Notes under the pieces: generated by a model
What the model was told of the DNA's origin: nothing
Seen by the model: the letters and a program-made list of their open reading frames with translations, nothing else
Database searches by the model: none
Source of the DNA: Armatimonadota bacterium
GTDB taxonomy: Bacteria > Armatimonadota > UBA5829 > JAUSEB01
Assembly: GCA_030649165.1 (NCBI GenBank)
Contig: JAUSGG010000034.1
Location: forward strand, 4,546 to 68,545
DNA: 64,000 nt
Reading direction: 5' to 3'
Shown here: positions 6,869-62,282 of the stretch, piece after piece
Layout: every line of letters begins with the position of its first letter
Numbering within the stretch: the stretch's first letter is position 1
Translations under genes and position numbers: made by a program

Positions 6869-7632
6869 GTGACGCCCTGCTGACCCTCGATAATTGTTTC
6901 ATTGCGTTCGGCGGTCTGGTTGCCGTGGATTCGGTCAATATCGCGTTGAAACCAGGCGAACTCATCGGCCTGATCGGCCCAAATGGCGCCGGCAAGACTA
7001 CGGTATTCAACCTCATAACCGGCGTGTATCGACCCACAATGGGCGGCATATATCTCGGGGGCAGGCCGATCCACGGCCACAAACCACACGAGATAGCCGC
7101 GGTGGGGATTGCGCGCACGTTCCAGAACATCCGCCTGTTCGGCAGTCTGACCGCGTTGGACAACGTCCGGGTGGGCGCGCATACCCACGTGCGCTATTCA
7201 CCGGGGGACGCGATATGGCGAACGCGCGCATTTGCGGTCCAAGACCACGAGCAGACAACGCGGGCTATTCACCTTCTGCACGTTTTGGGGCTGGGCGGTT
7301 TTCAGAACACCGATGCGCGAAGCCTGCCGTACGGCGAGCAGCGCAGGCTGGAAATCGCCCGGGCGCTTGCGTCGGAGCCGAAGGTTTTGCTGCTGGACGA
7401 GCCTACAGCCGGCATGAACCCGCACGAAACGCGCGAGTTGATGGAGGTTATCAAGTCGATTCGTGACGATTTCGGGCTGACTATACTGCTTATCGAGCAC
7501 GATATGAAGGTGGTTATGGGCATCTGCGAGAGGATTTACGTCCTCGACTACGGCAAGGTCATCGCCGAGGGAAAGCCGGAGGAAATCCGGAACAACCCGG
7601 CGGTGATCGAAGCGTACCTGGGGGAGGCGTAG
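6865..7632 (+). CDS. livG: Branched-chain amino acid ABC ATP-binding subunit
   Basis: Walker A GPNGAGKT, ARTFQNIRLF, LPYGEQRRLEIARAL, LLLDEP. Confidence 0.95.
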   Translation: MSDALLTLDNCFIAFGGLVAVDSVNIALKPGELIGLIGPNGAGKTTVFNLITGVYRPTMGGIYLGGRPIHGHKPHEIAAVGIARTFQNIRLFGSLTALDNVRVGAHTHVRYSPGDAIWRTRAFAVQDHEQTTRAIHLLHVLGLGGFQNTDARSLPYGEQRRLEIARALASEPKVLLLDEPTAGMNPHETRELMEVIKSIRDDFGLTILLIEHDMKVVMGICERIYVLDYGKVIAEGKPEEIRNNPAVIEAYLGEA

Positions 7633-7642
7633 GCTGCACGTG

Positions 7643-7695
7643 GGGTTCAGGGGAGAACGCAGATGAACACAGATAAACACGGATGAACGCGGATA
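7643..7695. repeat. 10-bp periodic repeat element GGTTCAGGG(G/A)AGAAC + (AACRCRGAT.)n
   Basis: Copies at about 7643-7695, 7870-7925, 8675-8700 (short), 12128-12180, 16920-16996 (without the head) and 27038-27088. Confidence 0.85.
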
Positions 7696-7800
7696 GGGAG
7701 GGCAGCAGGATCCGGTCAATCACGAAAACACGAAAGGACGAAAAGTCGAAAGAGGGAGTGGAGATAGTCGGACGAAAACGGAGACCTTCGGTCGGCCATA

Positions 7801-7828
7801 GTGCGGGGTCTGAGACCCGCGCACAGCG
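7801..7828. repeat. REP-like palindrome GTGCGGGGTC.GAGACCCGCGCACAGCG
   Basis: Copies at 7801-7828, 18013-18040 and 27142-27171; two are preceded by GGAGACCTT(G)CGGTCG. Confidence 0.85.
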
Positions 7829-7942
7829 TGGAGTCAGTTGAATCGAAGGGAAGGGGATTTGCGATTGGTGGGGTTCAGGGGAGAACGCGGATGAGCACAG
7901 ATAAGCGCAGATGAACGCGGATGGATCGGAAAAAGAGTTAGT

Positions 7943-8650: not shown

Positions 8651-8757
8651 GGGGCCGCTCTTGTCGGTAGATGAGGTTCAGGGAAGAACGCGGATAAAGA
8701 CCGGAACCGGGATTAACCACGAAAGCACGAAGATGCGAAAATACGAAAGAATTATTT

Positions 8758-8789
8758 GGTCCCTCCAGGTAGGATACCTGGAGGGATAG
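8758..8789. repeat. REP-like palindrome TCCCTCCAGGTA-GGA-TACCTGGAGGGA + TAG
   Basis: Perfect 12-bp stem. Copies at 8758-8789 (+), 11448-11476 (-), half copy 11484-11497, 11739-11778 (+) and 25990-26029 (+, 2 mismatches). Confidence 0.9.
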
Positions 8790-8850
8790 AAAACTGGCAC
8801 AAAATCACAGGTGTAGACCGGCAGTCCCAACGGCATGACATAGACGATAA

Positions 8851-11217: not shown

Positions 11218-11496
11218 CGGGATATTGCCGCCGGTATCATAAAAGGCTATGTACGCGCCAGCTGGGAGCTCCCGTCTCGTGCCTACTGCCCATATTCTAT
11301 CACACGAGCAGCGCGTTTGGCTTTCGCAGCCGAGGGCTGTGGCTGTCCGGGAGGAGATCCTTCGTTCCTCAGGATGACGTCTTTCCGGCGTGGTGGTGTT
11401 GGGATGGGGGGCGTGTTTTCAGGCCGGGTAAAGCAGATTCCTCGTTCCTATCCCTCCAGGTATCCTACCTGGAGGGGCCTTCAACCTGGAGGGATA

Positions 11497-11718
11497 GAGT
11501 ACGTAGGCGTGAATCAAAACTCCGTGCTTCTCTCTGTAGAAGTCGAGGGCGGACAGCAGCAGCCGGGCGTTTTCCGGCTCTGCAAGTAGGGGCACGAACC
11601 GTTCAATCGTGGTAGTGATGAAGCAGAGATCGAAGCCCTCCGCTATGTTTTTCCAGTGTTTATACTGCGGCGTAGTGACTCGCCTCCCGACCGCCGATTG
11701 CTCGGCAAGTGGTTCCAT
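11497..11718 (-). pseudogene. N-terminal remnant of a REP-associated / IS200-like HUH tyrosine transposase (RAYT, Y1_Tnp)
   Basis: PQYKHW..CFITTTIERFVPLL....ARLLLSALDFYREKHGVLIHAYVL, then runs directly into a REP palindrome where the MPxHxH motif is expected. Confidence 0.7.
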
Positions 11719-12200
11719 AGGGGGTGTTCTATGTGCATACGGTTGGTCCCTCCAGGTAGGATACCTGGAGGGATAGAACCGATTCCACATTCCACACACC
11801 CCCTATATAGATGATGTGTATGTGGAATCAACCCATCGCGTCTGTTTGGCCGGGCGAAAGGAGACGGAAAGGCGTGTCCCGAAGCCTAGCAGATTCCTCC
11901 TCGTTCCTCGTCGGAATGACAACATACGGGCCTTTTTCAACAGGTCCTCGGTCCCCTTTTTCGCCCTTTTCCTTCACATTGGTGTTGCCGCCGACGCCGA
12001 TTAGGCGAACATGTCCTGGGAACGTTCGACCATGCAGCAGATAGCCGATCAGGTGGCGTGGGATGCGGAGTTCGTGCGAGTCTTGTACAAATCGCACGCG
12101 ATCTTGCAAATCGCGCCCGATCTCGGGTGGTTCAGGGAGGAACGCAGATGAACACAGATAGACACAGATGAACGCGGATGACTGGGATAGCTGACAGCTT

Positions 12201-16834: not shown

Positions 16835-17061
16835 ACAACTCCCTTCGATGTGCTCGTTGCGGTTTTCCTAGTGCTCCTTCGACCAAAGGGGGGCGGAACC
16901 CTGCGTGTTTGCACGTATGAAACCGCCGATGAACGCAGATAAACGCGGATGAATGCGGATGTTTGAACCACAGATGGACACAGATGGACGAGATGGAGGG
17001 ATGTTGACTCCACCCCGACTCCACCCCAGCCCTCCCCCTGAATGGGGAGGGGGCAGGTTGG

Positions 17062-20171: not shown

Positions 20172-20270
20172 GTATAACCTGGTTTGCGGGGGATTTGCAA
20201 ACGTCTTTAACGAGGAAAACAGGAAAGGTAGGAAAACGGGAAAGGGGATCGGATTGAGGTGAGGGGGCTG

Positions 20271-20414
20271 CCGCGGGAACTGACTTTGGTGAGATTCGAC
20301 TGCTTGGCAGTACTAGGCCGTTCCCGCACGATAGTGGTTGGGGCGGTGGGCGGTGCGGGAACTGACTTTGGTGAGATTCGATGACTTGGTTGTGCAAGAC
20401 CGTTCCCAGGATAG
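20271..20414. repeat. ~62-bp hairpin element GCGGGAACTGACTT-N-G(G/A)CCGTTCCC..GATAG (tandem pair)
   Basis: Copies at 20271-20334, 20355-20414, 31303-31367, 38247-38312 and 53133-53193. Confidence 0.85.
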
Positions 20415-23080: not shown

Positions 23081-23284
23081 GGTTTCGGGATTTCCGGGTT
23101 GGAATGCGAGGTTGTGCTATGACCGCGGAAGTGTGAAGCCCAACCCTCAAATCCCGAAACAACGGCAAGGAGAGAGCTTTCACCCTCACCCTAACCCTCT
23201 CCCTCAAGGGAGAGGGGATTACGCTCGTCGTCTCCCGAAAGTGAGCGGCGAAGAGATACGTACTCACCAAGCCTGAACTCTTAC
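23081..23284. mobile_element. 5'-truncated copy of the modular MITE-like element
   Basis: Ends in CTGAACTCTTAC (23273-23284); interior matches 27461-27592 plus the ~85-bp module of 32821-32905. No left end found. Confidence 0.75.
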
Positions 23285-23289
23285 GTTGA

Positions 23290-23368: not shown

Positions 23369-25081
23369 ATGTTTACGAACTCCCTCAAACTGAATCTGCT
23401 GACCGCAACGCTCGCTCTCGGCCTGGTCACGGCTGCTTCGGCAAGCATTTTAACCGATCTGCCGGGCGCGAAATCCTACCGCTCCGCCAGAATCTCCAGT
23501 TACGACAAGCGGGGCGGGAACGCAGACGGCTCTCAGGGCAATCCGCTTAAACCAGGACAAATCCGCACTATGGCGGAGATCAAAGGCCCTGGCCAGATTG
23601 CTCACATCTGGATTACCAAAGGCGGCGTGGATATCCGAGATATCATCATACGGATGTACTGGGACGGCGAGAATACCCCAAGCGTGGAGTGTCCTCTTGG
23701 CGAGTTCTTTGGCTTGGGTCACGGCAAGTATTACACCTTTGAGAGCCTGCCATTTGCCATTGGGAACGACGCCGGTCTCAACTGCTTCTTTCCCATGCCT
23801 TTCAAGAAAAGCGCGAAGGTGACGGTTCAGAATGTCGGCTCCAGTAACCTCGACATGTTCTACTACTATATCGACTACCAGGTCTTCGACGCTCCCCGCA
23901 ACGATCTTCTTTACTTCCACGCGCAGTATCGCCAGGAGAAGCCCGTCCTCTCGTCCGGGAACTACGTCATACTCGACGCCGCCGGACGCGGGCACTTCGT
24001 CGGGTGTTTCCTTTTCTGCCGGCAGAACGAGCCCGGGTGGTTCGGCGAAGGCGACGACATGATCTACATCGACGGCGCGAAACAGCCTACCCTGAACGGG
24101 ACCGGCACCGAAGACTATTTCTGCCACGCCTGGGGTTTCGCCAAAGGCGCCTCGACTGCCCGTTTCGGCGTTTGGAGCGAGAAGCCGTTCGAGGATATGG
24201 GGGATTACTCGGTCTACCGGTTCCATTTGGAGGACGCGATAGCTTTCAAGAAGTCGATCCGCGTGACCATCGAGCACGGGCACGCTAATAACCGTTCGGA
24301 TGACTTCTCATCCATCGCGTACTGGTACCAGACCGAGCCGCACAGCGCGTTCCCGAAACTCGCCGCCCCGTTCGACAGACGCTCCTCCGAGGAGCGCGGG
24401 AAAACGCTGCTCAAGGAGAAAAAGTTCGCGGAATACCGCGAAGCGCAGACACAGGTCGCTCGGCGCACACACTCGGATTACGTGAGGCAGACCGCCGAGT
24501 TCAATATCGCGGACAGCCGGGCCGCCGAGGTGGGCGGGCAGGCGGGGGTAGACGCACTCCTTGATCTCCTCGGCCCGTTCCCGAATCCCGATATTGCCAA
24601 AAGGGTGGCCGAGCGAGTGAAGGAGCTTGGCGGTGACGCGGCTGCAATTCCTCAATCCGGCGTCTATCACATTTTGGGCGTCTCCGACGGCGAGGGCGGC
24701 GTGGTAACGATGGACGGCAAGCGCTGCGTCAGGACGAACACGGCGAAAGGCAGCCGGTATATCTACTTCGACGTGGATAAGTCGATCCTGTCGCGGGGCG
24801 ACAAGCCCATCATGCTGGAGATAGAGTACTACGATGAGGGCAAGGCGGGAGATACTTTCCTCGTTGAGTATGATTCGGCGTTCACGAACGATGATGCGGA
24901 CAAATATCGCCCCACACCTGCGTTCATCAAACCGGGGAAGAAGGGTTGGAACTCCGCCGTGCTTTATCTGGAAAGAGCGAGGTTCGGCGGAAGGCAGAAC
25001 GGCGGCGCGGATTTCCGCGTCTACTCCGGCGGCGACACCGACGAATACGTCAGCAGTATCAAGGTGATCTCGAAGCAGTAG
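23369..25081 (+). CDS. Secreted DUF2961 / GH172 glycoside hydrolase with a C-terminal beta-sandwich domain
   Basis: Signal peptide; GPGQIAHIW, IRMYWDGE..PSVECPLGEFF, WFGEGDDMIYIDG, GTGTEDYF, IEHGHAN, SIAYWYQ. Confidence 0.88.
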   Translation: MFTNSLKLNLLTATLALGLVTAASASILTDLPGAKSYRSARISSYDKRGGNADGSQGNPLKPGQIRTMAEIKGPGQIAHIWITKGGVDIRDIIIRMYWDGENTPSVECPLGEFFGLGHGKYYTFESLPFAIGNDAGLNCFFPMPFKKSAKVTVQNVGSSNLDMFYYYIDYQVFDAPRNDLLYFHAQYRQEKPVLSSGNYVILDAAGRGHFVGCFLFCRQNEPGWFGEGDDMIYIDGAKQPTLNGTGTEDYFCHAWGFAKGASTARFGVWSEKPFEDMGDYSVYRFHLEDAIAFKKSIRVTIEHGHANNRSDDFSSIAYWYQTEPHSAFPKLAAPFDRRSSEERGKTLLKEKKFAEYREAQTQVARRTHSDYVRQTAEFNIADSRAAEVGGQAGVDALLDLLGPFPNPDIAKRVAERVKELGGDAAAIPQSGVYHILGVSDGEGGVVTMDGKRCVRTNTAKGSRYIYFDVDKSILSRGDKPIMLEIEYYDEGKAGDTFLVEYDSAFTNDDADKYRPTPAFIKPGKKGWNSAVLYLERARFGGRQNGGADFRVYSGGDTDEYVSSIKVISKQ

Positions 25082-25139
25082 GTTTGTAGGTTTGTAGGGT
25101 TGAGAGGTTCCAAGGTCTAGAGGGTTCCGGAGTTTTGAG

Positions 25140-25985
25140 ATGCGTATAGCTGTGACCGGCGGGAGCGGGTTGATTGGGCGCTACGTCGTGAGGGAATTGG
25201 CTGGATCGCACGAGGTGACGAACCTCGATTTGCGGCGCCCGGAACAGGATGAACCGGGAGTCCGCTTCGTGCAAGGCGACGTTCTGTCGTGCGACCAACT
25301 CACTGAGAAACTTGCCGGGCACGACGCTGTCGTCCACCTCGCCGGTATTCCGAATCCCTTGAGGGACCCTCCGGAACGGGTCTTTCAGGTGAACGCGCAG
25401 GGGACTTTCAATGCGCTGCAGGCGTGCGCGCGCAACTCCATCCGGAATTTCGTGTACGCGTCGAGCGACTCCACTTTCGGCTTCGTCTTCCGGCGAAACG
25501 ATTTCTCTCCCGACTTTTGTCCACTTGACGAGAACCACCCGCTGCGACCACAGGACCCGTATGGCTTGAGCAAGCTGGTAGGCGAGGAGATATGCGGGTC
25601 GTTCGCCCGCGGATACGGTATGCGGACCACGGCCCTGCGCCCCTGCTGGGTATGGGCCCCTGAGGAGCGCGAAATGCAGCGCGAGCTGGTCGCAAAACCC
25701 GAGGGGTGGTGGAAGATGATGTGGGCCTACGTGGACGTTCGGGATTGTGCGAGAGCGTTCCGGCTCGCGGTCGAATCGACGCGGAAATGGGAGCACGAGG
25801 CCTTTCTTATAACAGCGGATGACAACGGGACGCACATGGAGTCGCGCGACCTGGTCTCGCGCTACTATCCGTCCGTGCAGCGAATCTCGCCTGAGTTCGG
25901 CGGCCGCGATTCGCTTCTGAGATGTGAAAAGGCGAAACGGATTCTTGGGTATGAAAGTCTACACAGTTGGAGAGATTTTCTGTGA
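25140..25985 (+). CDS. NAD-dependent epimerase/dehydratase (extended SDR)
   Basis: TGGSGLIG, HLAG, YGLSK. Confidence 0.92.
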   Translation: MRIAVTGGSGLIGRYVVRELAGSHEVTNLDLRRPEQDEPGVRFVQGDVLSCDQLTEKLAGHDAVVHLAGIPNPLRDPPERVFQVNAQGTFNALQACARNSIRNFVYASSDSTFGFVFRRNDFSPDFCPLDENHPLRPQDPYGLSKLVGEEICGSFARGYGMRTTALRPCWVWAPEEREMQRELVAKPEGWWKMMWAYVDVRDCARAFRLAVESTRKWEHEAFLITADDNGTHMESRDLVSRYYPSVQRISPEFGGRDSLLRCEKAKRILGYESLHSWRDFL

Positions 25986-26061
25986 AACAACGGTTGGTCC
26001 CTCCAGGTAGGGTGCCTGGAGGGATAGAATATGAGAGTCTGCACAGTTGGAGAGATTTTCC

Positions 26062-27033
26062 GTGAAACACGTTCTGATAGACACGGACGCCGGGGTAGAC
26101 GACGCCCTGGCGATTCTATTGGCCCTTTCCTCCCGTGAACTCGCCATCGAGGGCATAGCCACGGTGGCCGGCAACATCGATGTCGAACACGCTACCGCGA
26201 ATGTCCTGACCATCCTGGACGCGGTGTTTCCTCCGATCCGCCCTTCCGTTGCCCGGGGCGCCGAGAGGCCGTTAAACCGGCCACTGGTCACGGCGGCCCA
26301 CGTTCACGGGGAGGACGGGCTGGGCAATATTACGACGTTGCGCAGGCCGGACGGCTCGCCCAAGTACCCGTCTTCGCGGCACGGGCTTGTCAGTCTTGGG
26401 GCCGCGGAGTTCATTATTGATGAGGTACGGAAGCATGGTCCCGGTCTCACTCTCATCACGCTGGGGCCGCTGACGAATGTGGCGGAGGCGATCCGTCTTA
26501 ACCCGGAGACGATGCGCCGGGTCGGCGAGATCATAATAATGGGCGGCGCGTTCAGGACATACGGGAACACGTCTCCAGTCGCCGAGTTCAACATCTTCGT
26601 TGACCCGGATGCCGCGGCAAGGATCGTCGAGTTCGACGTTCCGAAGACCGTAGTCCCGTTGGACGTTACCGAGCAGGTGATACTGACCCGCACCGAGCTG
26701 GAATGCCGCTATGCGTCAAATCCATCCCCAATTCTGGACTTCACCCGCGACGTCTCGTCATTCTACATGGATTTCCACAGGGACAATGACGGCTTCGACG
26801 GCTGCTACATGCACGATCCGACTACGGTTGCGTTCGCAATAGACCGGTCGGTCCTTATGACTGTTCCGGCCGAGGTGCACGTGGAGTGTAAGGGAGAGTA
26901 TACGGCGGGGATGACGGTGGCGGATTTGCGGCCCGAACGGGCCGGACGGTACCGGACGAATACCGAGGTTGCGGTTGGTGTTGATGCGGGGAGGGTCATC
27001 GATCTGTTCTTCTCCAGGCTTCTCGCGTGCTGA
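26062..27033 (+). CDS. Inosine/uridine-preferring nucleoside hydrolase
   Basis: DTDAGVDDA, VHGEDGLG, LGPLTN, AEFNIFVDP, MHDP; GTG start at 26062. Confidence 0.93.
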   Translation: MKHVLIDTDAGVDDALAILLALSSRELAIEGIATVAGNIDVEHATANVLTILDAVFPPIRPSVARGAERPLNRPLVTAAHVHGEDGLGNITTLRRPDGSPKYPSSRHGLVSLGAAEFIIDEVRKHGPGLTLITLGPLTNVAEAIRLNPETMRRVGEIIIMGGAFRTYGNTSPVAEFNIFVDPDAAARIVEFDVPKTVVPLDVTEQVILTRTELECRYASNPSPILDFTRDVSSFYMDFHRDNDGFDGCYMHDPTTVAFAIDRSVLMTVPAEVHVECKGEYTAGMTVADLRPERAGRYRTNTEVAVGVDAGRVIDLFFSRLLAC

Positions 27034-27218
27034 GGCTCGGTTCAGGGAAGAACACAGAACACGGATAAACACGGATGAACGCGGATGGGATCGAACGGAG
27101 GGCCGGAATGGGGAGTCGAAGGAGACCTTGCGGTCGCGGACGTGCGGGGGTCGGGAGACCCGCGCACAGCGGGTTGTGTAACGGGAACCTCCATTCGCGT
27201 CTCGCTCAGATAGCCCTC

Positions 27219-27898
27219 ATGGTCTTTCTCCTGATTGGAATTGCCGCGGGCTATTGATCCACGCAGGTTCCTCCAAGCAAGCCGAGTCAGGTTTCCGCGG
27301 CCAAACTCACGCCTGAGGAACTGGGGCTTATTAAAGCGCAGACAGAGAACAACAAAGCACAAGCTCAGTAAAATAAGTTACTAGTCCAAGAGTTAGAGGA
27401 AAAGCCCAAGCCTAAGCCCCCCAAGCCGACCATCACGCGGAAAGTATTGGCGCTTTTAGCGTAAGAGTTCAGAAATGGAGAGAACTTTCACCCTCACCCT
27501 AACCCTCTCCCTCAAGGGAGAGGGGATTACGCTCGTCGTCTCCCGAAAGTGAGCAGCGAAGAGATACGTACTCACCAAGCCTGAACTCTTACCTTTTAGC
27601 AGGTATTCCGGGATGGGGCATGTTTATTGCTGCTATCGTTGCTATTGTCACTTTTGGCTTGAACTATAGGGTCACGCTAAGAAGCCAAAAGGACACACAG
27701 TTTTATGAAGCCCTCAAGCGTTTTGGTGATGAGGACAGTCCCTGCGTTCGTTGCAGCGCCGCGGGTCTCTTGGCGCAACTGGGTTCCACTCCGGTGTGGG
27801 AACCCAAGTTATGGCGGCGACCAATCGTTGGGTGGTTTCGGACATCTCGCTCACACTATCAAACTGCTTTTGATCAGCTCTTTGCGGGCTCAGCGTGA
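27219..27898 (+). pseudogene. Degraded membrane-anchored protein gene interrupted by a MITE
   Basis: One frame from ATG 27219 with stops at 27255 and 27369. Removing 27461-27600 rejoins KVLALLAGIPGWGMFIAAIV..FYEALKRFGDEDSP.VR.SAAGLL in frame. Confidence 0.75.
27461..27592. mobile_element. MITE-like element, 132 bp
   Basis: Perfect TIR GTAAGAGTTCAG / CTGAACTCTTAC; TSD CTTTTAGC at 27453-27460 and 27593-27600. Confidence 0.92.
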
Positions 27899-46929: not shown

Positions 46930-49584
46930 TCAAGAGCCAACAGCGTACCGAATGCCCGGCAAGGCGTTGCCGGCGCTGTCGCAGAGCCTGGCTGAGATTC
47001 CCCAGCCGTTAGTCCCCTGCGTGACCTTGATGAGCAGACAGTTCCAGTCTCTGTGGAGGGTCACAGGAATCCTGTCCTGATCGCGAGTCCACGAGCGATA
47101 GACGTCGTTCAGCCAGACCATCTGGCTGTTATGGTAGACTTTCACACCGTCGTTGCTGCCTATCCGCAGTTCGGCGGTCTGATCGGCGGGAGAGTAGATG
47201 TAGGCGTTCACATAGCCGAGGCCTTCCGAGGGAGCGCCATAGGGGCCGGCCAGGTCTACGTATCCATCCGGTTCGGCTGTCACGGGCGACCACTGGTATC
47301 TTCCGCTAACCATTCCGATCTTCGGCCAGGTGGTCGCCTCGCCGCCGAGGTAGTCGGCGGCCATGCGGGTGGTTCTGTCGAGATGACCGTAGAATCCGTT
47401 CGCCAGCCAGTCGAATATGAACGGAGCGGGCTGGTCCGTTGTCGTCGACTGACTCAACCCGTCTTCATAGTTCCAATTGCCACATACGTCCACGGCTACG
47501 ATCTTATAGACGTAGTTCGTGTTTGGCGTCAGGTTGGTCAGAGTGACCGCGTGGTCCTCCACCAGTTGCGGGGTGGCGACAATGGTGTTCGTGGTAGTCG
47601 TTCCATAGTCGATCCGGGTAGTTGTCGGTTCGCTGGTTTTCCACGTGACGACCATCCGGCTGCCGGTCACTGCCTCAACCTGCACGTCGCTGATGATCGG
47701 AGGCGTGGTGTCCCCAGTGTCGGCAGCGACGTTCACTCCCGGCAGAGCTTTTCCGGCCGAATCGCAGACTTTGGCGACGAGCGCCCAGCCGCCGGTGTTC
47801 TGCGATACTTTGAAGATCAGCCGGTTCCAGCCCGCGATCAGATGGACGGGCATCTTATCCTGGTCGGGCGTGACGGTTCTGCCAACGTCCTTGGTCCAGA
47901 TGTTCACGCCATTCGCCCAGACTTTGACACCATCGTTGCTTCCGAGCCACAACTGGGCGTCCTGTTCGGACGGAGAATAGACGTACGCGCAGGCGTAAGC
48001 GGCGCAATAAGTGCGGGTTGATCCGTAGACGGACAGGAAGCTCAGAATATCCGTGGAACTCTGCTTAAACGTCCACGTCTTCGCCCCCTGGACTTGCCCG
48101 GCGCGCGGCGCCGCGTATTCCTCGCCGCCGAGGTAGTCCTGCGACAGTCTGGTGGCGCTGCTGATATTGGAGTAATAGCCGTTCAACAGCCAGGTCCTTA
48201 TGTAGCCGGCGGTTGTCGCGCTTCCCGCGGTCGTGACAAAGGTGGACGAAGGCGCGCTCGACGTGTTTCCATCGGCATCCCGCGCGTCCACAACGAAATG
48301 GTACGTCGTGCCGGCGGAGAGGCCGGTCAACGTGATAGAATGCTGCGTCCGCAGAGTAGTGTCGCTCGACGAAGATCCCAAGGCCGTGGTCGCGCCATAG
48401 CGCACGGTGGCCGTGGTCAACTCATCAGTCGTGCAGTTGATCGTGGCAGAACTGGTTGTAATGCCCGTCACAGTGACGATAGTGATCGTGGGCGCCCCGC
48501 TTGGGGGATTTGTGGAAGTAGTAACGCCCGGAATGGGATTGCCCGCTGAGTCGCAGACCCTCGTCGCAAGCGCCCAATTGCTCGTGTTTTGCGCTACTTT
48601 GAGAAGCAGCCGGTTCCAGCCGGGGGCAAGATGGGCAGAGACCTTATCCTGATCGGGGGTGCAGCCCCTCAGGACATCGTTGGTCCAGATGTTCGCGCCG
48701 TTCAGCCAGACCTTTACGCCATCGTTACTTCCGAGCCACACCTGCGCGTTGAGGTCAGCCGGTGAGTAAACGTAGGTGAAGGCGTAAACGGCGCAGTATT
48801 GCGACGTGGACCCATATACGGTAAGGAAATCGAGGTGGTCCGCTGAGTTCTGCTTCAGCGTCCACGTTTTCCCCGCCTGGGACTGCCCCGCGCGCGGAGC
48901 GGCGCTCGTCTCACCGCCAAGGTAGTCGGTCGAGAGCCTGGTTGTCCTGTCGGTGTTTGAATAATAGCCGTTCAGGAGCCACTCTCGCACGAACGCCATC
49001 GGTGGGGGATCGCCCGGGGTGATAGTGTACGATCCCTGCGCCTTTTTCGTAGCGTCGAACCTCGACGTCGCCATCAGCGCAAACGAGGCCGGAACGGAAG
49101 CGGCTGTCGGGATCGCGGCAACCAGGAAGCACTTATAGGAGGCTCCCGCGGCGACAGAGGGTGTGGAGGTTACGACGGTCGTCTCCGTCGATTGACGAAC
49201 ACCGTCGCCGTTGGCGTCGGCGACCATTCTCGGCGACCACGAGGTATCGCCTGTGACGGCAAGTCCGAAAGTATCGGACCCGTTGCCGGCGTTTTTGACG
49301 GCTACAGCGACGCAGCCATCAGACCCCGCTTGCGCGGTGACGTTTCCGGTCGCGGGCGTTAGCTGTACGCCCGCCACCTGACCTACCGTTACTGTAACGG
49401 TGTTCGAAGTGGACGCAGGCATGCGGGTTCCTGCGCTGTCGTTGTAGTTCGCGATGCTTGAGGTCGAAATCTGCGCGCCTGAAGGGGTGAGGGCGTAGGC
49501 GCTGACCGCGAGACCGCAGCAGGCGAATAGGAGGCCTACCGCGGATGACAATGCTCGCGCCAAGTGAAACTGTTTCTGGTTCAT
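46930..49584 (-). CDS. Secreted protein with three PA14/galactose-binding-like repeats and FN3-like spacers
   Basis: Signal peptide; three ~160-aa repeats WL.NG.Y..DYLGGE..GSNDGVKV..W....KV.Q.T..W....CDSAG; DUF11-like N-terminus. Confidence 0.8.
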   Translation of the reverse strand: MNQKQFHLARALSSAVGLLFACCGLAVSAYALTPSGAQISTSSIANYNDSAGTRMPASTSNTVTVTVGQVAGVQLTPATGNVTAQAGSDGCVAVAVKNAGNGSDTFGLAVTGDTSWSPRMVADANGDGVRQSTETTVVTSTPSVAAGASYKCFLVAAIPTAASVPASFALMATSRFDATKKAQGSYTITPGDPPPMAFVREWLLNGYYSNTDRTTRLSTDYLGGETSAAPRAGQSQAGKTWTLKQNSADHLDFLTVYGSTSQYCAVYAFTYVYSPADLNAQVWLGSNDGVKVWLNGANIWTNDVLRGCTPDQDKVSAHLAPGWNRLLLKVAQNTSNWALATRVCDSAGNPIPGVTTSTNPPSGAPTITIVTVTGITTSSATINCTTDELTTATVRYGATTALGSSSSDTTLRTQHSITLTGLSAGTTYHFVVDARDADGNTSSAPSSTFVTTAGSATTAGYIRTWLLNGYYSNISSATRLSQDYLGGEEYAAPRAGQVQGAKTWTFKQSSTDILSFLSVYGSTRTYCAAYACAYVYSPSEQDAQLWLGSNDGVKVWANGVNIWTKDVGRTVTPDQDKMPVHLIAGWNRLIFKVSQNTGGWALVAKVCDSAGKALPGVNVAADTGDTTPPIISDVQVEAVTGSRMVVTWKTSEPTTTRIDYGTTTTNTIVATPQLVEDHAVTLTNLTPNTNYVYKIVAVDVCGNWNYEDGLSQSTTTDQPAPFIFDWLANGFYGHLDRTTRMAADYLGGEATTWPKIGMVSGRYQWSPVTAEPDGYVDLAGPYGAPSEGLGYVNAYIYSPADQTAELRIGSNDGVKVYHNSQMVWLNDVYRSWTRDQDRIPVTLHRDWNCLLIKVTQGTNGWGISARLCDSAGNALPGIRYAVGS

Positions 49585-52890: not shown

Positions 52891-53048
52891 GTAAGAGTTC
52901 AGAAATGGAGAGAACTTTCACCCTCACCCCATTCGCTGCGCTCAGGGCAAGCTCTAACCCTCTCCCTCAAGGGAGAGGGGATTACGCTCGCGTTCTCCCC
53001 GGGGGTGAGCAGCGAGAAGAGTCGTACCGACCATTCCTGAACTGTTAC
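52891..53048. mobile_element. MITE-like element, 158 bp
   Basis: TIR GTAAGAGTTCAG / CTGAACTGTTAC; TSD GTCGGAGG at 52883-52890 and 53049-53056. Confidence 0.92.
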
Positions 53049-53304
53049 GTCGGAGGAGGGCGGAGGTATGAGGTATGAGTCATCCGTGCCGGTGCGCGAC
53101 ACGCATGGGGATGGAATCGGTTGCGGTCCGGTGCGGGAACTGACTTCGATGATGTCTGAGACCTGATTGCACAAGGCCGTTCCCGCGGGATAGGTAAGGC
53201 GGATCGATTATAAGTGAGGGAGTTGGGCTTTGGTTTTGCCGCCTGGTTCAAACCCCATGTGTCAGGGAAACCTGATAATGAGAATAGTACGGAGGTCAAG
53301 TCCA

Positions 53305-61215: not shown

Positions 61216-62169
61216 TTGACACCGAAGGAAAGAGCAATCGCGGCTTTTGAGCTAAGAGAGCCGGATGATATCGTGCCGACTTTTGAGCTGCAATTTCAGC
61301 TTTCCGAGGCGCTGCTGGGCAAGAAACATGCGACGCAGCGGGAGTTGGACGAAGCTTCGCCGGGGGAGAAAGACCGACTCCTGAGCATTGAAGCGGAGTT
61401 GTACGTCGAGGAAGCGGAGAGGCTGGATTATTCCATTATCTCCGTAAGCTTCGGTCCTCACAATTCAGAAGACCTGCTGCAGACCATACGCCGCATTTGC
61501 CGACTGGTGGGTGAGAAGTACCTGATCGCGGTCCTGCTCGACGGGACAATGGGCATCCCGAACGGACAAACAATGATGACGCTTTCGATGCGTCTGACGG
61601 ACGACGCGGACGGCCTTAAAGCGGAACAGGACCGCAATGTGGACGGAGCTATCGAATACGCAAAACGTCTTGCCGACGCCGGCGTTGGTGTGGCATTGAT
61701 GGTTGCCGACTATTGTTTCAACGACGGACCTTTTCTGTCACCCGCGATGTTCCGCGAGTTCGTCACGCCGTATCTGGCCCGACAAGTTTCCGAGTTGAAG
61801 AAACTGGGACTGTACACGGTCAAGCACACGGACGGCAACATAATGCCCATCCTCGACCAACTCGTCGAATCGGGGGCCGACGCCCTGCATTCCATAGACC
61901 CGCAGGCCGGCGTGGACTTGAAGGAGGTCAAACGCCTGGTCGGGGACCGGATCGCGCTTTGCGGGAACGTGCGCTGCGATTTTCTGCAATCCAGAACAGT
62001 TCAGGACGCGGTCACGGACGCCGAACGTTCTCTGCGGGACGGCATGCCGGGAGGCGGCTACTTCTTCTGCACGAGCAATACGCCGTTCATTGGAATGCCG
62101 CTGGAGAATTATCTGGCGGCGCTTGACGTAAGGCGCCGGTTGGGATGGTACAAGAGGGAAGGGTTATAG
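61216..62169 (+). CDS. Uroporphyrinogen decarboxylase / MtaA-CmuA family protein
   Basis: GGAGG RBS before TTG 61216; ADDY-like VADY, FLSPAMFREFVTPY, KHTDGN, GN, GGGYFF...N. Confidence 0.8.
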   Translation: MTPKERAIAAFELREPDDIVPTFELQFQLSEALLGKKHATQRELDEASPGEKDRLLSIEAELYVEEAERLDYSIISVSFGPHNSEDLLQTIRRICRLVGEKYLIAVLLDGTMGIPNGQTMMTLSMRLTDDADGLKAEQDRNVDGAIEYAKRLADAGVGVALMVADYCFNDGPFLSPAMFREFVTPYLARQVSELKKLGLYTVKHTDGNIMPILDQLVESGADALHSIDPQAGVDLKEVKRLVGDRIALCGNVRCDFLQSRTVQDAVTDAERSLRDGMPGGGYFFCTSNTPFIGMPLENYLAALDVRRRLGWYKREGL

Positions 62170-62282
62170 GGTTATAGGTTTGTAGGGTTTTGAGGTTACG
62201 ACGGCCTTTGGTTTGGCCCCTATCACCCTATAGCCCTATGAACCTGCAATGCTACAACCCGAAACCGGCCGACTGTCAGAAG

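Follow-up and report, generated by a model that had tools for sequence, protein, structure and literature searches.

A repetitive extragenic palindrome flanked by 40-bp direct repeats between an epimerase gene and a nucleoside hydrolase gene of an Armatimonadota bacterium

The DNA considered here, hereafter the window, is a stretch of 64,000 nucleotides from an Armatimonadota bacterium (GenBank assembly GCA_030649165.1, contig JAUSGG010000034.1), and the feature under study is the junction between two of its genes, both on the forward strand. The upstream gene (25140-25985) encodes a 281-aa NAD-dependent epimerase/dehydratase (Pfam PF01370, E=3e-35), and the downstream gene (26062-27033) an inosine-uridine-preferring nucleoside hydrolase (Pfam PF01156, E=2e-87) of 323 aa counted from a GTG start, which was placed by homology to three relatives (L001, L002 and L042, described below). 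The junction (25950-26069) consists of three forward-oriented blocks: a left duplicate, A1 (25950-25989, TATGAAAGTCTACACAGTTGGAGAGATTTTCTGTGAAACA); a unit of exactly 40 bp that is a repetitive extragenic palindrome (REP; 25990-26029); and a right duplicate, A2 (26030-26069, TATGAGAGTCTGCACAGTTGGAGAGATTTTCCGTGAAACA).

A1 and A2 are direct repeats that agree at 37 of 40 positions, their mismatches (positions 6, 12 and 32) being transitions in each case and their longest mismatch-free stretch 19 nt; none of 100 shuffles of the window gave any such match. The block between them agrees with 11739-11778 at 38 of 40 positions, a match that was likewise lacking from the shuffled window. These coordinates and counts are exactly those given in a preliminary description of the locus. 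Read by eye, the three blocks are flush, with no filler and with no microhomology at the A1-REP joint, at the REP-A2 joint or between the ends of A. Within the 64-kb window, this junction is the sole case of a closely spaced X-repeat-X arrangement. A likeness to TTCT(A/G)TG found 6-12 nt to the left of the REP copies at 11739 and 25990 was put down to chance.

The duplicated block is native gene sequence. The final 11 codons of the epimerase gene and its TGA (25983-25985) fall within A1, and the corresponding peptide, YESLHSWRDFL, matches the conserved C-terminus of the epimerase family, LGYxPxxSWRDxL, when homologues are compared. A2, for its part, provides the hydrolase gene with a Shine-Dalgarno-like GGAGAG (26049-26054), a 7-nt spacer and the GTG (26062-26064). 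The open reading frames (ORFs) hence agree with the earlier assignment of the epimerase stop to the first copy and of the hydrolase start to the second. A1 also retains a GTG (25982-25984) and a GGAGAG, and A2 keeps a TGA (26063-26065), leaving the GTGA motif intact in both copies. Sequence resembling A occurs in the window only as A1 and A2, and none lies beside the other REP copies. That A might be part of a mobile element was ruled out on the grounds that it encodes a family-conserved C-terminus and is found only twice in the window.

The REP unit comprises an 8-nt 5' extension (ACGGTTGG), a stem of 11-13 bp with a loop of 3-5 nt (25997-26025) and an ATAGAA tail. Four copies of the hairpin, with the core TCCCTCCAGGTA-NNN-TACCTGGAGGGA, are present in the window, all of them outside ORFs that have homologues: 8752-8791 (forward, between convergent genes), 11442-11479 (inverted), 11739-11778 (forward) and the focal copy. 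In all four, the DNA stem has 11-12 bp and folds at -12 to -13 kcal/mol, with z of about -5 to -6 (focal copy: -12 kcal/mol, z=-5.0). The closest relation of the focal copy is the one at 11739-11778, which lies just upstream of a transposase pseudogene and has the same 8-nt extension and ATAGAA tail, while a GGGTG variant at the loop and stem top is confined to the focal copy. In the source metagenome the hairpin word reaches a depth of about 650, against 13-20 for the flanks, and about 20 other contigs hold the hairpin; the number of REP copies per genome, roughly 40, is an estimate from 64 kb and metagenome depth rather than from a whole genome. The same hairpin core is present in three metagenome-assembled genomes (MAGs) of Armatimonadota. 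No Rfam family was found in 25000-27300, and neither a promoter-like site nor a terminator was found at the junction, where the REP has no T-tract.

The pseudogene beside the closest copy (11482-11721, reverse strand) is the remnant of a gene for a REP-associated tyrosine transposase (RAYT), of which the N-terminal ~80 aa are left. The inverted REP at 11442-11479, whose region is 92% complementary to 11745-11782, stands at the truncation point and is followed by half a REP (11483-11500); since it cuts the gene just before the HUH motif, with a forward REP upstream, the RAYT of the window is dead. A Pfam search with the window fragment alone gave no match, and its identity came through a homologue of 181 aa on a JGI contig (L040:1803-2348), to which it is 54% identical over 65 aa (tblastn). 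The NCBIfam equivalog model REP_Tyr_transpos (NF047646, cut-off 80) gives this homologue 105 bits. The protein also matches Pfam Y1_Tnp (9e-09) and the E. coli TnpArep structure (PDB 4ER8) and contains an HUH motif (PEHIH) and the motif YIHGNPV, and its gene is bordered on both sides by the same hairpin.

Three of the four defining features of REP/RAYT systems are thereby found in the focal element, namely a short (20-40 bp) imperfect GC-rich palindrome, many extragenic copies per genome and a RAYT (Y1/HUH) gene between inverted repeats. The fourth, a GTAG/CGTC tetranucleotide at the foot of the hairpin, is missing: the 5' foot reads (A/T)(A/T)GG(T/C) and the 3' foot ATAG(G)AA, whose ATAG resembles GTAG yet differs from it. 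This tag is a trait of two large REP superfamilies, not of every REP (PMC3733652). Nor is the focal element a REPIN, which consists of two inverted REPs and a short spacer; it is a lone 40-bp REP, and REP clusters occur elsewhere (11442-11500 and contig L038). Taken together, these features indicate that 25990-26029 is a genuine RAYT-associated REP within a REPtron, in keeping with the identity first proposed for it: inverted copies flank the RAYT fragment, and the intact homologue passes the RAYT model.

Comparison with relatives shows a single-copy ancestral junction, a state that the preliminary description had postulated and proposed to look for in relatives. Of the relatives that have the junction, L001 is the closest (epimerase 70% and hydrolase 66% identical); its junction is single-copy, with a 4-bp ATGA overlap of the genes (...TGGAGAGAGTTTCTATGAGACGA...). 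L002, an Armatimonadota MAG (64%), also has a single-copy junction, with an overlap of 26 bp, and carries at 2870-2926 16 extra nt (AGGTTGGAAGAAACCA) with respect to L001 and the window, which lengthen the overlap and add another purine-rich stretch ahead of the GTG; the junction is evolutionarily labile. In L042 (hydrolase 70% identical), the epimerase gene has been lost, and about 100 nt of its 3' end (190-285, including GGAGAG) remain in single copy upstream of the hydrolase ATG, where they act as a leader for the hydrolase gene. When aligned, A1 and A2 both fall on the single-copy junction of the relatives, and in every aligned case the hydrolase GGAGAG lies within the epimerase W-R-D/E codons. 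The hydrolase relatives L043, L044 and L045 have other genes upstream and are hence uninformative on the junction, and the contig of L041 (hydrolase 80% identical) begins inside the gene, so that the junction comparison comprises the first three.

A single public run (X1) contains this DNA, in the form of contigs, and in these no joint skipping the 80 nt, as expected of a single-A allele, was seen. The same run holds a contig of a second strain ('record 2'; 489 nt, ~87-92% identical, depth ~5), which matches the epimerase 3' end within 25600-25989, reaches the last base of A1 and ends 7 nt beyond it; no second-strain sequence covers 26032-26274.

Should long flanking duplications be a habit of this REP family, they would be expected at other copies as well, and the preliminary description had called for a survey of these. 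We compared the left and right flanks, 120 nt each, at 42 copies of the hairpin, of which 4 came from the window, 34 from a genome scan (the GTDB representatives matched being genomes other than that of the window) and 4 from contigs of the metagenome. The flank-repeat score was 31 for the focal copy, 12 and 11 for the next best copies, and at most 11 among 400 mismatched left/right pairs. None of the 41 other copies has a long flank repeat; among these, the metagenome scan for the window-type REP had given four loci, all of them free of flank repeats. From 0/41, the share of duplicating events among retained insertions is put at below about 7% (95% bound). The 40-bp duplication is thus a rare event and not the insertion footprint of the REP family.

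Neither is the arrangement as recent as the word 'snapshot', used for it in the preliminary description, would imply. Besides the three differences between A1 and A2, the focal REP departs at two sites from both its nearest copy and the consensus loop, and these five substitutions in ~80 bp of largely unconstrained REP-A2 sequence speak for a structure of some age. The change at position 32 certainly took place in A2, because the Leu codon concerned is conserved in A1 and in the relatives. As a separate observation, the five differences (25955/26035, 25961/26041, 25981/26061, 26012 and 26014) are all A>G or T>C on the forward strand of the REP-A2 block, a bias of direction in which the counts are too small for interpretation.

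How the two copies of A came to enclose the REP can be approached from the ancestral arrangement. We consider it about an even bet that a single aberrant integration took place, in which the REP became linked at its two ends to target sites separated by 40 nt as one copy entered the 4-bp start/stop overlap of the epimerase-nucleoside hydrolase operon; that insertion and duplication were one event we infer, and the mode of insertion may, as first suggested, have been single-stranded or replicative. Along one possible route, the target strand would be nicked to the left of A, its 3'-OH would be extended by ~40 nt through strand-displacement synthesis, the REP would connect the newly made 3' end to the displaced 5' end, and the next round of replication would fix A-REP-A. 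Two staggered nicks followed by fill-in would yield an identical product. The nick-extension route fits the chemistry of HUH enzymes, since nicking by these enzymes frees a 3'-OH able either to prime synthesis or to serve as a nucleophile (PMC8266576). Selection would in this case have acted as a filter. Because the GGAGAG lies inside the epimerase W-R-D/E codons, a non-duplicating insertion at the overlap severs one gene from an essential part, at the expense of either the epimerase C-terminus or the Shine-Dalgarno sequence and start of the hydrolase gene, and only the rare duplicating outcome would spare both genes.

Other histories could have led to the same 120 bp. The main rival, in our opinion unlikely, divides the process into two: a neutral or near-neutral 40-bp tandem duplication of A would have un-overlapped the genes, and a normal REP insertion would then have hit exactly the joint between the copies. 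Each of these steps is a known process, and no aberrant transposition is required for a REP family whose insertions normally lack a flank repeat; the junction is labile, as the 16 extra nt of L002 illustrate, and if an A-A tandem slipped, it would present loops of single-stranded DNA, the substrate that Y1 transposases such as those of IS200/IS605 prefer. The flush A1-REP-A2 order, which follows automatically from a single integration, is however a 1-in-24 coincidence if the REP landed later, given that a REP would have been tolerated at any of 24 points downstream of the TGA in A1 and upstream of the Shine-Dalgarno sequence in A2. The ends of A, moreover, share no microhomology that could drive slippage, perfect 40-bp tandems are unstable and leave a short time window for the second hit, and no other short tandem is found at a gene junction within the window. 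An A-A arrangement without the REP, which the preliminary description had named as the finding that would overturn its own account, was seen in no relative.

A larger rearrangement later trimmed by deletions to one REP seems improbable to us; it might have been a bigger tandem duplication or insertion between A1 and A2, for instance another incomplete epimerase gene or an element with REPs on its flanks. Such a history finds parallels in L042, which keeps ~100 nt of the epimerase 3' end after loss of the gene, in the REP-associated truncation of the RAYT pseudogene, with its REP and half REP (11442-11500), and in Salmonella, where Shyamala et al. in 1990 reportedly found REPs to be the join-points of tandem duplications. 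Several events would nevertheless have had to leave a complete 40-bp REP flush with both copies and no leftover sequence, and A lacks the outer REPs that REP-REP recombination would need. More improbable still is a rescue by recombination, in which two defective alleles, one with the REP to the left of A and the other with it to the right, recombined within the REP, or in which the REP came first and a compensating duplication after it. Flush junctions would then arise without unusual transposition chemistry, and a REP to the left of A would merely replace the last 11 aa of the epimerase; against this stand the demand for two deleterious insertions, each of them rare, at sites 40 bp from one another in the same population, the demand for recombination within 40 bp, and the lack of single-sided alleles in the contigs of run X1. 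An artefact, by which a metagenome assembler joined two loci through their shared REP, we hold to be very improbable. REPs do break or mis-join short-read assemblies, and the Logan contigs of run X1 do break inside the focal REP. These contigs, an independent assembly, nonetheless run without mismatch from A1 into the REP (to 26027) and from the REP (from 26000) into A2, overlap by 28 nt and both carry the private GGGTG variant, and their flanks have a matching, single-copy depth of 13-20, which together make a chimera unlikely; the epimerase-hydrolase order is in addition a conserved synteny.

Several points weigh against a single aberrant integration. The case is a single instance (n=1), and the sole RAYT in the window is dead. 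An empty-site or intermediate allele is absent from the close relatives and from the contig sample of the one run. The divergence of 3/40 between A1 and A2 and of 2/40 in the REP fits simultaneity and is no proof of it. As to what is known of related elements, Y1 transposition of the IS200/IS605 type is known to proceed without duplication of the target (PMC2817692), no one has so far reconstituted REP integration (PMC8266576), and REP singlets of Pseudomonas have been argued to be immobile (PMC3116915).

Whatever its origin, the duplication has left an additional reading frame at the junction. An ORF of 27 codons (25982-26065, forward strand; VKQRLVPPGRVPGGIEYESLHSWRDFP followed by a stop) begins at the GTG of A1, crosses the REP and ends at the TGA of A2, and at both of its ends the overlap is GTGA. 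It exists because the period of 80 nt equals 2 modulo 3 and because the REP is open in that frame, and the chance of such a bridging frame arising by accident is roughly 0.1-0.3. Termination and reinitiation from the epimerase gene to this mini-ORF and on to the hydrolase gene may relay translational coupling across the hairpin, a reading of the frame that we offer as a lead and not as a finding. We know of no precedent for a bridging ORF together with a duplicated Shine-Dalgarno sequence at a REP. The REP hairpin, moreover, starts 11-12 nt past the epimerase stop, inside the polycistronic transcript. In this regard, Liang, Rudd and Deutscher reportedly observed in E. coli (2015) that REPs situated no more than about 15 nt from a stop codon lower upstream translation, and the work of Newbury and Higgins in 1987-88 is said to have dealt with REP effects on operon expression and with stabilisation of mRNA 3' ends.

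Of the systems known to us, the locus comes closest to the REP/REPIN-RAYT (TnpAREP) REPtrons, with which it shares a short GC-rich extragenic hairpin, inverted copies around a Y1/HUH gene (PMC2817692, PMC3116915, PMC3333891, PMC8266576) and, in L040, a transposase homologue that passes the RAYT model and matches PDB 4ER8. It departs from them in its Armatimonadota-like groundwater host, in its feet (TTGG...ATAGAA in place of the GTAG/CGTC tag) and in that the focal copy occurs singly between two operon cistrons, with a 40-bp duplication around it. Long flank duplications at REPs are not mentioned in the REP literature surveyed (including PMC2817692, PMC3116915 and PMC8266576), and a literature search on overlapping genes and repeats returned no comparable report. 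The 'peel and paste' elements of the IS200/IS605 type have a related transposase fold and recognise hairpin ends, and the other 41 copies of the focal REP resemble them in lacking a target-site duplication (TSD); the 40 bp duplicated at the focal copy, by contrast, indicate that the event there was no standard reaction of this kind.

Direct repeats of the target flush with both ends of an insert, without microhomology, recall instead the TSDs that staggered cuts produce in DDE transposition, in miniature inverted-repeat transposable elements (MITEs) and in long interspersed nuclear elements (LINEs). The TSDs of DDE elements and MITEs, however, measure 2-14 bp and have a fixed length at each copy, whereas 40 bp lies far outside the bacterial DDE range and no TSD recurs among the 42 copies; the target-primed reverse transcription of LINEs makes longer, variable TSDs, but neither a reverse transcriptase nor a DDE transposase is implicated here. 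Integrative elements at the att sites of tRNA genes are similar in that direct repeats bracket the insert and the interrupted gene end is rebuilt. Unlike the focal insert of 40 bp, such elements are site-specific and carry the repeat, as the core of their target, together with an integrase, and the other copies of the focal REP have no A-like sequence. The X-REP-X order, finally, is that of the Salmonella join-point duplications that Shyamala, Schneider and Ames are said to have described in 1990, which would need REPs at both ends of the parental X and leave outer REPs behind, and of these there are none at the present locus. What is unusual about this locus is the combination of a flush 40-bp duplication, a site within a former start/stop overlap and a bridging ORF.

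The genome is unusually rich in extragenic repeats, several of which lie near the operon. Direct repeats of 119 nt that are 97% identical (23169-23287 and 27477-27595) bracket the block formed by a GH172 (DUF2961) gene, the epimerase gene and the hydrolase gene; both are members of a repeat family marked by a CCCTCTCCCTCAAGGGAGAGGG hairpin, which is also represented at 52954 and 35091. The spacer between the GH172 and epimerase genes (25082-25139) contains 8-nt repeats of the TAGGTTTG type, which recur at 62159-62205, while in L002 the two genes abut; a second junction of the operon is thus repeat-expanded as well. Repeats of 10-nt units resembling GATGAACRCAGAT occupy gene-distal positions at 7630-7932, 12115-12189, 16906-16960 and 27032-27096, the last directly after the hydrolase stop. 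Intergenic repeats of at least two further families are present: a hairpin of ~45 nt, CCTCCCCCTAACCCCCTCC...GGAGGGGGG (15777, 35079, 38335, 40496, 53873 and 56552) and a GCGGGAACTGACTT...GGCCGTTCCCGC element of ~100 nt (20258-20407, 31268-31368, 38213-38313 and 53095-53194). At 46952-48981 lie three paralogous segments in tandem, 61-73% identical and repeating every ~785 nt.

On the question of how REPs spread, the locus offers a possible clue, suggestive rather than decisive as it comes from one case. A filled site with empty counterparts in relatives defines the unit that moved, a 40-bp singlet with extensions of 8 nt and 5 nt, together with its flush, microhomology-free junctions and, unexpectedly, a target duplication of 40 bp. 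Should the REP have inserted and the target been duplicated in one event, its chemistry would be constrained to nick-primed synthesis or staggered joining. Going further, and as a doubtful proposal that we put forward as speculation, RAYT-driven REP integration might involve a nick in the target, with extension of its 3'-OH possible ahead of strand transfer, and so give rise occasionally to long target duplications that vary in length; the present locus would then be the first natural footprint of that intermediate, kept by selection on overlapping genes, which it un-overlaps with coupling maintained through a relay mini-ORF. At the level of the operon, our findings provide an example of a selfish repeat that enters a start/stop overlap with survival of both genes, and hence of a route by which overlapping genes may separate.

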